A program made the translations under genes and the position numbers. Shown here in pieces: positions 978 to 63,810 of a DNA stretch of 64,000 nucleotides (position 1 is its first letter; the number at the start of each line of letters is the position of its first letter). The DNA comes from Octopus vulgaris (lineage: Eukaryota), in NCBI GenBank assembly GCA_951406725.2, contig OX597840.1, positions 20,708,001 through 20,772,000 on the forward strand. Reading direction: 5' to 3'. The notes below the pieces were generated by a model. It saw only the letters and a program-made list of their open reading frames with translations. It had not been told where the DNA came from and ran no database searches.

Positions 978-1203
978 CAAAAGACAGTAAAAGAAATCTG
1001 TGACCTCGTGTGTACCGTTGGCGATTTTTTTCCCTCTGTCTTCCCTTCTCTGGATCTTTCCTTCTCCTATGTTTCCGACGAAGAGCTCCGCTCGAAACGT
1101 TAAACCCTCCTTCTTTCCTTCTTTCCTGAGCGTCCAATAATACTATATTTGTTCCACGTCCTCATGTTGTTGTGTTTTTTTGTGCTTTCTTGTTTGGATT
1201 AAC
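978..1203 (+). mobile_element. Short non-autonomous Penelope-like terminal fragment carrying a minimal hammerhead variant
   Basis: Contains the hammerhead-like motif at 1071-1105. Shares tttcctgagcg...taatac with the copies at 24.0, 26.3, 27.8 and 63.6 kb. 3' end abuts (TA)n. Confidence 0.6.
1071..1105 (+). ncRNA. Minimal type I hammerhead ribozyme variant (core CCGACGA plus extra A)
   Basis: gttt-CCGACGA-A-GAGC-tcc-GCTC-GAA-ACGT-T-aaac: stem I gttt/aaac, stem II GAGC/GCTC, palindromic stem III ACGT. Confidence 0.6.
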
Positions 1204-1862
1204 TATATATATATATATATATATATATATATATATATATATATGTGTGTGTGTGTGTGTGTGTATATATATATATATATATACACCCACACATATGTAA
1301 TTATGTATATGTGTGTTTATGCTTGTAAATATGTATGTACGTACATATATATGTATGTACATACGCATATGTCTATATGTAGGCATGCATGTATTATGTA
1401 TGTGTGTATGTATGTATGTTTGTATGTGTGTATGCATGTGTGTGTGCATGTATGTATGTATGTGTGTGTGTGTATGTATGTATGTGTGAATGTCTGTATA
1501 TATACAAAACCAATGTCAATAATATGAAACGTTGCTAATCTTAAATTCTCATCTCGGTAGAAATGTCACAACATGAACAGTAAGGAATGGTGGCGCTGGT
1601 GGTAGCGGTGGCGACGGCGGTGACGGTGGTGGTGGCGGTGGTAATGGTTGTGGTGGTGGTGGTGGTGGTGCTAATAGTGTCGGTGGTTGTCGTGGTGGTA
1701 GTGATGGTAGTGGTGGTGATAATGATGATGGTGGTGGCGGTGGTGGTTGTGGAGGTGCCTGTATCTACGTAAGGCTGTGTATGTATGTATTCATGTTTGT
1801 ACTTTATGTATGGATGTATTTAAGCGTGTATATATATATATATGTGTGTGTGTGTGTATGTA

Positions 1863-2824
1863 CAGTCATGCCTCACTTTACGAGGATCCGCTTTACGAGA
1901 CCCTGGCTTTACGAATTTTTATTCTATAATAAATTTTTCAAGCACAAGATCCAAATATTGATAGAAATGCAAAAGTTTCTCCTACAATAACAAATGTTTG
2001 AGTGTGTTACCAAGAAATTTACAGAGAACGAAAAAAAAGATTATTCTAAGCAAACAACTCTAGACTTGTTTCTTTTTTAAAGACATCTACAAGTCCGTCT
2101 ACGGGTGCTTGTGAATCGGCGATCGCGTCTACAAGTGATGGCGTGCACGAGTCTAGTTACGAGTGAAAGTGATTCAGACAACGATTGCTTTACTTTTTTG
2201 CTTTTTTACTTGTTTACTTGTTTCAGTCATTTGACTGTGGCCATGCTGGAGCACCGCCTTTAGTCGAGCAAATCGACCCCAGGACTTATTCTTTGTAAGC
2301 CTAGTACTTATTCTATCGGTCTCTTTTGCCAAACCGCTAGGTTACGAGGACGTAAACACACCAGCATCGGTTGTCAAGTGATGTTGGGGGGACAAACACA
2401 GACACACAAACACACTCACACATATATATATATATATATATATATATATATATATATACATATATACGACGGGCTTCTTTCAGTTTCCATCTACCAAATC
2501 CACTCACAAGGCTTTGGTCGGCCTGAGGCTATAGCAGAAGACACTTGCCCAAGGTGCCACGCAGTGGGACTGAACCCGGAACCGATGTGGTTGGTAAACA
2601 AGCTACCTACCACACAATAATATTTTTCATTATAAATCATCTTTACTGTTGAATTATTGCCATTTATTTACGAGTTTTATAAATTCCATGGATAAACTAA
2701 ATTTCTGGGAACGGATTACAATTTATAACATTGCTACCATGAGAAATTCTTGCTCTGCTTTACGAGTTTCCGCTTTATGAGTTGTCTCCGGGAACAAATG
2801 AACTCGTATATCGAGGCATTAGTG
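1863..2824 (+). mobile_element. Non-autonomous pogo/Tigger-like DNA transposon interrupted by a SINE
   Basis: Imperfect TIRs (cagtcatgcctcactttacgag / ctcgtatatcgaggcattagtg) flanked by TA, with subterminal ctttacgag repeats. Residual C-terminal KQTTLDLFLF* (2048-2080) resembles the PIP-box-like end of pogo transposases. Confidence 0.75.
2190..2616 (-). mobile_element. SINE family 1 (tRNA-derived head, ccttgggcaagt CORE/V-like block, internal microsatellite)
   Basis: Reverse-complement match to the full copy at 54261-54672. Confidence 0.9.
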
Positions 2825-3474
2825 TATATTATACGCATGTTCGTATGTATTTACGCATGAATACATGAATCCATCATACGTGTATATATTGTTGCATGCG
2901 TGTTTGCATGTATGTGTGCACGAACTCTTGTATATATGCATGTATGCATGTTTTTTACGTATGCTCGGATGTATGCAAATAGGTGTTATGCATACGTATG
3001 CGTATACCTATGCATGGGTATGCATGCATTAGGATGCATGTATGCGTGTATCTATGTATATATGTACGAATGCATGCACGTATATATCTGTGAGTGTGTG
3101 TGTATATATATATATATATATATATATATATATATATATATATACATATGCAATAAAGGGTGGAATGTAATTAATTTAATAAAATTAATCAATTTCACCT
3201 TGTAGATTTGTCGGTATATATGCATATGTATGTATTTATATATATATATATGTGTGTGTAAATATATCGACATATATATAAATGTGTGTGTATATATATA
3301 TATATATATATATATATATATATATATATATTTTTATATATATATGTTTATCTGTCAGTCTATCAATCTATCCATCTACCCATGTATCCATCCATCCCTC
3401 TATACATCCATCCATCCATCCATCTATCTATCTATCTATCTATCTATCTATCTATCTATCTATCTATCTATCTC

Positions 3475-4563
3475 GAGAGGAAACTGTCCCTAAAAGGTCG
3501 AGCGGAGGTGGCGAACACGTACATCGCGTCCGTCATCTACTACCGCCTGACCGTCGTACCTTGTCCCGACCCTACCATCACCAAACTACAACGCATCCTC
3601 TTTCGCTTCTTGTGGAAAGGATGCGTCCCGATGGTCAGGCGATCCATTTGCTGTCAACACCCGTTAAAAGGAGGGCTGGGCATGCCGTGGTTGATGATGC
3701 GCAGACACGCGCTGAGACTGCGGCATCTCTGGCTCTATGTAGACGACGGTGAACAGGTGTGGTCGCCGTTTGTGAGGCACGCTTTCCCGCAGCTCGTCTC
3801 CATGACCGAACTGCAGTCGTGGATCAAAAAGAGGCCGAGGAAGGGCGAATGGCACCGCGAGTGTCGCGTTGCTCTCAAGCAACTCTGCCGTCCTGGGTCG
3901 ACCTTAAGTGACTTCAACACAACCAAAGCATTCTATAGGGGTTTAGTGGAGGGGAGGTACGACGACGAGCTCGGGGCGAACCTGGACGTCGACGAGGAGT
4001 ACCTGACCCGCCTGTTCAGGACGACTTTCGGGCCAGGGCCCATGGACAACTTCCAGAGATCCCTGGCCTGGCAGTGCTACCGAGAAGCGCTACCCGTTCG
4101 GGATAAGCTCTACAGACACGGCTCGAGAAACACGGGGCCGACCTGCCCGAGATGCGGCCAGAGCGACGAAACCGTTCTGCACGCACTCGTTCAGTGTCCA
4201 ACAATTTCCGACCTGTGGGCTTATGTCGAACAACTGCTGTCACGTGTGGGACGAGTCGGTTTATCAGCTGAGTCTATCGTCAATATTGTCACGCCTCCTT
4301 CCTTCAAACGGGAAGGAAGAGCTATTTTCATCATCCTTGTGGCTATGGCGAAAGAATGTATCTGGTGGACGCGTCTGAAAGGATTGGAGACAAACACTTT
4401 CCTCTCTGGTCAATCTCTCATCAACTTCTTCAAGTACCACTTGAAAAGGAAAGTGAGAGTAGAGAGGCAAGTTTTGTCTAGCGAATGTTTTAAAAAAAGA
4501 TGGGTGAATGTAGCAAGAATGGCACGTATGAATGACGAAGCCACCTTGAGCATAGTCCTATGA
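3475..4563 (+). CDS. C-terminal ~360 aa of Tx1/L1-type ORF2 (post-RT region with zf-RVT CCHC knuckle); no start codon
   Basis: Motifs LSLKGRAEVAN, FRFLWKG, KGGLGMP, WQCYREALPVRDKL and CPRCGQSDETVLHALVQC; no stops. Confidence 0.85.
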   Translation, partial: ERKLSLKGRAEVANTYIASVIYYRLTVVPCPDPTITKLQRILFRFLWKGCVPMVRRSICCQHPLKGGLGMPWLMMRRHALRLRHLWLYVDDGEQVWSPFVRHAFPQLVSMTELQSWIKKRPRKGEWHRECRVALKQLCRPGSTLSDFNTTKAFYRGLVEGRYDDELGANLDVDEEYLTRLFRTTFGPGPMDNFQRSLAWQCYREALPVRDKLYRHGSRNTGPTCPRCGQSDETVLHALVQCPTISDLWAYVEQLLSRVGRVGLSAESIVNIVTPPSFKREGRAIFIILVAMAKECIWWTRLKGLETNTFLSGQSLINFFKYHLKRKVRVERQVLSSECFKKRWVNVARMARMNDEATLSIVL

Positions 4564-62438: not shown

Positions 62439-62769
62439 TTCTATCACTCCCTGTATCCTTCTCGCCATGCTATCGCACACCAATAACCAAGATCGTCGAC
62501 CATCTTTTTTTTTTTTTTACTTCACCTGTTTTCCTTCTCAGTAATTATCTCCAACCTTGTCTCTTTCTCTCTGATGTCGTCTGCCTGTTTCTGAGTTTTA
62601 TCTTCTTTCTACTTTTTTCTTTCATTATATATATATTTTTTTTCATTTTCTTCAATTTTCTGCCAACATCTCTCTTGATGTCTTCCGTTTCTTTCTGATA
62701 TTTTGGGGTTGTTTTGTTGATGAGGTTCCTTTTATACTTGTTCTTATAGGTATATATTTTAATCTTTCA

Positions 62770-63178
62770 GTTAGTTAGTTAATTTCTTGGCTTAAAAAGC
62801 AAAAAGCAAGGCCATGTAGGGGGACATGGAGTTATGTACAGGGTGGTGTTCATGTAAAGAGTTCAGGCCATTTGTGGTCAAGGGAGTCTTTGAACCGAGC
62901 GGTCGTCGGCATCTTCACTATCTCATCCGGCAGCTTATTCCACGGATCCGCAACCCGGACGGAGAAAGCCCCTCTCCTTCGATTGAGATGAAATCGTCGC
63001 AGATAGAGCTTTTCGGAGTGACCCCGCTGCCGACGCTCTGGAGCAGGAGTGAAGAACAGCTCTTTCGAGAGGTTACACTTTCCGCTTATGATGTTGTGAG
63101 CAAGAATGAGATCACCACGGCGTCGTCGTTTTTCTAGAGAATAAAGGTCGAGCGTCTTCAGCCTTTCTTCAATTTGCA
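62770..63178 (-). mobile_element. CR1-like LINE 3' end (ORF2 C-terminus, (TAAC)n tail)
   Basis: EERLKTLDLYSLEKRRRRGDLI..RGHSEKL..FSVRVADPWNKLP is a typical CR1 ORF2 terminus. Confidence 0.92.
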
Positions 63179-63624
63179 TTACTTTTCCATTGTGATGCAA
63201 ATAAAATGAACCAAGCATCTTCTTTAATTTTTCGTCTCCATTTTCTGTTATTGACTTATTAATTTATGAGACTCTTTATACTTATATATATTGAAGAACT
63301 TTCTATCAATATATTTAGTTAAACACAGTTGGCATCTAGATTCAGAAGTATTAAATTTCTAAATGTCTCAAAGAGACATGAGCGGTGGTGGAGCGATAGA
63401 GTGGTTATATACTGTCAACTTAACGTGACAGTCCCGTATGGGAATTACACCACCGCTGTTTAGCCCTAGGAAGCATCGAACGCTTCCTGTCGGCTTTGAC
63501 ACATTTTCTGTGTCCTTATATTTGTGAAGGGGAGGCAAGCACCCCTACAAGCCAAGATTCAGTTAGCATCTGGATTGTTTTTTAACAATCTCTTACGGAG
63601 ATATTGCTTCCTCAAATTTGTATA

Positions 63625-63810
63625 TACATTTTTTTTCTCTCCTTGTTTCTCTCCTTGTTTCTTTTTGTGTTCCTTTCTGTAGAGGAGCGTAGGCTCGAAA
63701 CGTAAAAGACTTTTTCTATTCCTGAGCGTTATACTAACACATCTGTTTGTTTTGTACACCACCTGTCTTCGTCTGCTGTTGTTTTTTTCTTTATTTTTCG
63801 TAAACTCTCC
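63625..63810 (+). mobile_element. ~180-bp hammerhead-bearing element, subfamily b
   Basis: Matches 26277-26462; followed directly by a SINE. Confidence 0.85.
63673..63708 (+). ncRNA. Minimal type I hammerhead variant (core CUGUAGA plus G)
   Basis: cttt-CTGTAGA-G-GAGC-gtag-GCTC-GAA-ACGT-A-aaag. Confidence 0.6.

Follow-up and report, generated by a model that had tools for sequence, protein, structure and literature searches.

The window analysed here, a 64,000-nt stretch of Octopus vulgaris contig OX597840.1, carries five dispersed repeats, each with a hammerhead-like motif. These repeats are the 5'-truncated 3' ends, corresponding to the pseudo-long terminal repeats (pLTRs), of two sister Penelope-like elements (PLEs) of the Neptune type. 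When each motif was re-read in the window, all five were found at the positions, and with the cores and stems, given in a preliminary description of this DNA. They share one layout, namely, a single extra purine, a GAGC/GCUC stem II, GAA, ACGU and the nucleotide H17.

Four of the copies belong to what we call lineage A, with a GUAG loop, and one to lineage B, with a UCC loop. The lineage B copy (999-1203, forward strand) runs into (TA)n and carries a minimal motif at 1071-1105 with the core CCGACGA (U4C), a 4-bp stem I (GUUU/AAAC) and H17 = U at 1101. Two lineage A copies lie on the reverse strand. One of these, at 24011-24187, is from a young subfamily, is followed by (TA)n and has its motif at 24110-24147 (core CUGUUGA, A6U; 5-bp stem I UCUUU/AAAGA; H17 = A at 24115); the other, at 26276-26461, represents a CUGUAGA subfamily, is bordered by TA repeats on both sides and has its motif at 26365-26400 (A6U; stem I CUUU/AAAG). 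On the forward strand, the copy at 27780-27999, from the youngest subfamily and 95% identical to the lineage A element L145, sits between (GA)n and (TA)n, with the motif at 27862-27899 (core CUGUUGA, A6U; stem I UCUUU/AAAGA; H17 = U at 27894). The last copy, at 63623-63812 on the same strand, is again of the CUGUAGA subfamily (motif 63673-63708, stem I CUUU/AAAG; its extra base is G, which is A in most copies), and here another repeat adjoins in place of (TA)n. That repeat, at 63813-63940 on the forward strand, and another at 23850-23960 are putative short interspersed nuclear elements, judging from their appearance.

The consensus core CUGANGA (or UUGANAA) is absent from all five copies, as the preliminary description had noted, with U6 in four and C4 in one. 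However, the A6U change is not common to all of them: the CCGACGA copy retains A6 and departs from the consensus at U4. Nor do the copies support an element of fixed size near 180 bp, given that they span 177-220 bp and that the 5' ends of copies elsewhere fall anywhere from within the motif up to the whole element. A profile of the 3' flank alone, run over 464 kb with the window at the centre, matched 22 times, five times inside the window, and thus revealed no sixth copy. Of the 790 Rfam matches in the window, the 150 listed include no hammerhead, nor do the 66 matches from five short loci, three of them with canonical cores; both results are uninformative for minimal motifs. A general repeat search of the window was dominated by microsatellites.

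Two lineages of Penelope-like elements

In the 2.8 Gb genome, to which all genome-wide counts refer, a 19-mer spanning the GUAG loop of lineage A has 19,236 exact matches and a 21-mer spanning the UCC loop of lineage B has 12,556, compared to 0 for either reversed pattern. Thus, the abundance of the motif is beyond chance, and the high copy number proposed at the outset is borne out; a looser pattern with a 4-nt loop matched 23,573 times. CUGUNGA accompanies the 19-mer in 15,854 matches, with A or G as the extra base. Lineage B cores are mixed, with CCGACGA in 19 and CUGANGA in 8 of 30 sampled copies, and many lineage B copies begin near one TGTGACC. The proteins of the two lineages are 61% identical (L287 versus L145), so that the copies fall into two sister families rather than one.

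That the five repeats are PLE ends is close to certain. Upstream DNA was translated for 8 copies with long shared extensions, out of 30 that the 19-mer had picked; 4 of the 30 run into the C-terminus of a GIY-YIG endonuclease on the same strand, 3 of which were confirmed by tblastn. A genome search with the GIY-YIG-bearing protein gave 16,583 candidates, 150 of which were scored and showed 90-100% identity. Among 20 copies with long open frames, which sample the youngest subfamilies, CUGUUGA was located by the strict pattern ~0.35-0.9 kb behind the endonuclease in 17, and by a flank search in the remaining 3. L145 itself has a 1,047-codon frame with an RVT_1 match, a C-X4-C-X2-C linker and a GIY-YIG domain, the latter identified from its motifs with no match to the Pfam GIY-YIG model. 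Hence the link between longer copies and frames combining reverse transcriptase (RT) with GIY-YIG, named as a check in the preliminary description, was found, and with it the assignment of the motif to the PLE-type minimal hammerheads of pLTRs; the copies are truncated ends of autonomous elements and not a non-autonomous family. Loci retrieved with the Pfam GIY-YIG model were rejected as other PLE families, the motif occurring near 3 of 30 and on the opposite strand, as expected of an unrelated insertion.

Tandem units have a pLTR on either side of the open reading frame (ORF) and measure 4.3 kb or 5.9-6.2 kb. A lineage A unit of 4,285 bp is present in L154, whereas L287, of lineage B, has a 949-aa ORF between two pLTRs 5,898 bp apart and a canonical CUGACGA core; the lineage B tandem units L288 and L290 have CCGACGA. 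In tandem units the hammerhead lies ~0.45-0.7 kb ahead of the ATG. Further PLE hallmarks include RT and GIY-YIG in a single ORF, partial tandem pLTRs, inverted copies and 5' truncation. The pLTR ends of L009/L010 (G000:C1:1878313-1878468) and of L027/L268 form tail-to-tail inverted pairs typical of PLE insertions. The 3' ends mostly adjoin (TA)n, the 5' ends are ragged, and of 63 copies selected through a 3' flank motif, 20 have no hammerhead. The C-X4-C-X2-C linker separates RT from the C-terminal endonuclease in both lineages. The closest protein relatives are ~55% identical. Membership of the Neptune clade is assigned by motifs and is putative.

Young lineage B elements (L287, oriented 5441-8040; L240-L246) have a 2.6-kb CA-rich 3' region in which a His/Thr-rich frame runs ~630 codons without a stop, probably as a by-product of the repeat. 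The region of L154 between the upstream pLTR and the ATG (oriented 2510-3070) contains a pyrimidine tract that ends in CAG and may be a retained intron; another very high-copy repeat shares some of this region. The U6 pLTR copy at L154:2190-2546 has identical contigs in runs X17, X18 and X19, which are labelled as three different organisms. Contigs over the pLTR come from four runs presumed to be RNA and give no strand, ends or level.

Hammerhead identity and conservation of the U6 core

The layout matches the published consensus of minimal hammerhead ribozymes (min-HHRs; supplement of PMC4209133) except at position 6 or 4. The features of the minimal type I are present, including stems with covariation, an extra base after A9, a G10.1-C11.1 pair, a palindromic ACGU and H17. 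In an 18-row sample from within the genome, stem II was invariant and stem I showed essentially one compensatory event. Therefore, the earlier statement that stem I differs between subfamilies yet still pairs holds for the pairing, which is kept, but amounts to a single two-sided change (C-G versus G-C) that coincides with the split between lineages A and B.

As outgroups we used metagenome loci of related PLEs. A descriptor scan of 80 such loci found 17 motifs in 15 of them, and none with reversed controls; position 6 was A in 15 motifs, G in one and U in one (L336), and C4 occurred in 3. When 10 outgroup loci of matching motif length were aligned with 9 local copies, two-sided changes were seen in 8 of 10 pairs, with a covariation score of 0.735 that was reached in 0 of 500 shuffles; relatedness inflates such scores, and slid controls reach at most 0.16. 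Its layout and the covariation seen with distant PLEs identify the motif as a minimal type I hammerhead. The two-sided changes and the outgroup A6 indicate that the motif is homologous to PLE hammerheads, with A6 as the likely ancestral state.

Core changes to U6 and U4C recur in PLE contigs of other organisms. L336:2790-2827 combines a U3-A8 pair with U6, and L299, L312 and L373 have U4C; all are single copies and could carry private mutations. A third PLE family (L061-L068), whose many intact 781-aa ORFs share ~27% identity with lineage A, has tandem pLTRs with a U3-A8 hammerhead-like motif, UUGAUAA, lacking the extra base and continuing in GAAACAU (in L061, ORF 1945-4287 and motif near 5265).

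With the 19-mer fixed, position 6 was U in 15,854 matches, A in 180 and C or G in 422; the first 100 of the latter comprised 87 C and 13 G, which corresponds to ~370 C6 and ~55 G6. The C:A ratio at this position, ~2.0, is near the 2.3 of flank mutations (G being rarer than expected), so the A6 copies of lineage A look mostly like private back-mutations. In a tree of 178 rows and 158 columns with the core masked (25 truncated rows dropped, midpoint root), such copies nest inside U6 clades; its bootstrap support is unsettled and we did not use it for the order of subfamilies. One old clade contains both A6 and U6, with 4 of its 6 A6 rows having been picked for A6. A separate canonical subfamily was considered and rejected, because A6 copies from young clades lie dispersed across the tree and share the N7 of their host subfamily.

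Seven lineage A consensuses, with an internal divergence of 2.7-10.8%, vary at 1 of 27 motif columns and at 61 of 127 flank columns. Without motif-picked copies (94 copies, six consensuses), the figures are 1 of 27 and 56 of 127 (p = 4e-5). The sole variable motif column is N7, which takes all four bases and is a free position in the hammerhead consensus; H17 is A or U throughout. Because the motif is so much less variable than its flanks, the U6 motif is under selection in the master elements, as first suggested, and its pattern of variability is that of a hammerhead core. Within single copies the motif decays as neutral DNA would, above all at CpG. Compared with L145, the endonuclease fragments that precede U6 copies are 73% to 98% identical.

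Possible weak cleavage and its alternatives

Our preferred explanation, to which we give a probability of about 0.5, is that the PLE ends carry a conserved U6 pLTR hammerhead with residual weak cleavage. Substitutions published for this core reduce activity. U6 likely weakens self-cleavage, and the motif would probably cleave weakly as a dimer or with the help of the element's protein. Reverse transcription would start at a fixed site ~100-110 nt behind the motif, with priming at TA repeats and an early stop usually leaving inert solo ends. The main template would be uncleaved RNA, and in a tandem transcript two motifs 4-6 kb apart could pair through ACGU. According to published accounts, cleavage by a natural A6C hammerhead is slow, with rescue by Mn2+ (PMC7151607, PMC3088659), U4C reduces activity while still supporting viroid infectivity (PMC3088659), and the hammerhead of an anole PLE cleaves only with its protein (PMC11167929). 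That the A6U core, kept through many active masters and more than 15,000 copies, is a ribozyme activated by protein, a dimer partner or Mn2+ is a proposal that we make tentatively.

Several observations weigh against residual cleavage. At the predicted cut site the 5' (TA)n junctions (80, control 32) are not in excess of those at the TA of loop II (86, control 1), which is consistent with uncleaved RNA as the template. The predicted fold is a rod with a U6-A15.1 pair (three of the four U6 copies in the window, p 0.82-0.98). The youngest lineage B subfamily combines U4C with a U-U mismatch in stem I, and one old lineage B group of 3 copies has G17; thus, as read from their sequences, some lineages spread despite motifs that look impaired. 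Lineage A also shows no variation in loop II or in the extra A, which is more conservation than catalysis alone needs. In a full mutant scan of a type III hammerhead, as reported, every single change in the CUGA region had low activity, with the C3/G8 swap as the sole rescue (PMC9901934). Finally, no fully intact lineage A ORF was found among the copies examined, the ATG of L145 being out of frame.

Much of this would fit a motif that does not cleave and is kept as a structural element, a rod hairpin, or as a protein-binding site for expression or priming, a possibility that we consider appreciable yet clearly weaker. In the rod, stem II is extended by G5-C and U6-A15.1; this is the predicted monomer fold, stabilized by U6 over A6 by at most 2.4 kcal/mol in 3 copies, and the invariant loop II and the cut site without a 5' pile-up point the same way. 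Catalysis is described as dispensable for insertion in vitro in the sole reconstituted system (PMC11167929). In addition, YGAGCG is found 20-35 nt behind H17 in 13 of 13 subfamily consensuses (in the window, 27926-27931, forward strand) and could pair with the 3' strand of stem II plus G12, forming a competing helix with a predicted probability of 0-0.96 depending on the subfamily; visual inspection did not reveal it in the outgroup motifs. However, all four bases occur at N7, which the rod would pair with A14; with flanks included, 3 of 7 lineage A consensuses form the rod weakly or not at all; and no pair of the rod changes on both sides across the clade (+1 register: 64.5% paired). The other catalytic positions and a cleavable H17 are all kept. 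We favour weak, assisted cleavage.

A fully active natural U6 core, for which the GUAG loop, dimer geometry, Mn2+ or the PLE protein would compensate, is unlikely. The motif is frozen except at N7 across the span of those upstream endonuclease fragments, A6 has not taken over (its copies number fewer than those with C6, near the flank ratio), and U6 also occurs in L336; yet the published position-6 changes that we found are slower in Mg2+, and junctions are not in excess at the cut site. Somewhat less likely still is a dead relic in neutral drift since A6U. A6 is a conserved core base and single copies do decay, but across the consensuses 26 of 27 motif columns are unchanged, against a change in 44-48% of flank columns, and on these alignments the idea is largely refuted. 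Least likely, and mostly refuted, is the originally proposed distinct ~180-bp non-autonomous or retrozyme-like family spreading via self-cleaved circular RNA. The majority of copies are short, and certain 5' ends are seen repeatedly, as in lineage B; against this stand the ragged 5' ends and motif-less flank-picked copies, the colinearity of longer copies with PLE ORFs, and a fixed 3' end ~100 nt past the cut site, unlike a cleavage-defined monomer. We found no head-to-tail arrays of short units in the window or the loci examined: copies in the 464 kb are solo, and tandems span coding units or truncated coding pieces.

Novelty and relation to known systems

PLE hammerheads show poor cleavage in vitro. 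The very successful lineage A has kept every hammerhead feature but A6, and its core, as anticipated, escapes CUGANGA descriptors. If U6 cleaves, a large class is missing from the catalytic consensus and from CUGANGA-based ribozyme counts; if not, selection on the motif serves something besides cleavage. Canonical and U4C sister elements in the same genome provide matched controls. Should A6U prove a working ribozyme, one genome would hold four PLE cores (canonical, U4C, A6U and U3-A8), a series that would allow asking what hammerhead cleavage does for PLEs.

Minimal hammerheads in PLEs have been published before, as have their scattering as solo ends, the extra base and the U3-A8 swap. We found no report of a natural A6U hammerhead in the literature consulted, and an abundant one appears new; Lünse et al. 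2017 (PLE variants; via PMC6765202) or supplements may hold U6. The main text of an octopus repeat paper contains neither 'hammerhead' nor 'ribozyme' (PMC13282606).

The closest counterparts are the min-HHRs of metazoan PLE pLTRs (Cervera & De la Peña 2014, PMC4209133), reported with the same layout (U-rich, stem I, CUGANGA plus extra base, G10.1-C11.1 stem II, GAAA, palindromic 15-16, H) and likewise mostly dispersed as single motifs from truncated PLEs, thousands per genome. The rows examined in that supplement all keep A6, with C3-G8 or U3-A8, whereas here at least 15,854 lineage A copies carry U6, C4 is found in much of lineage B, and stem II is just 4 bp. The Neptune EN+ PLEs, as described by Craig et al. 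2021 (PMC8557442), share the RT, the C-X4-C-X2-C linker, a C-terminal GIY-YIG with CCHH residues, partial tandems, inverted copies and microsatellite targeting; the octopus elements differ in that their 3' regions are long and of low complexity, reaching 2.6 kb in lineage B. The phage Bcep176 hammerhead (PMC3088659, PMC7151607) also has a natural position-6 substitution, but it is C and not U, in a single phage case that is reportedly slow in Mg2+ and Mn2+-rescued, whereas U6 here spans many subfamilies. The Anolis Poseidon PLE (Frangieh et al. 2024, PMC11167929) has a pLTR hammerhead, AT-rich targets, a fixed 3' end downstream of the hammerhead and no signs of ends at the cut site; its core is canonical as described, and its hammerhead overlaps the ORF start, which in the octopus units lies well downstream. 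Non-LTR retrozymes (bioRxiv 10.64898/2026.07.22.740005; PMC7229834) are likewise PLE-related and carry a type I hammerhead, but they are presented as non-coding tandem arrays of short units, in contrast to the solo truncated ends of coding elements found here.

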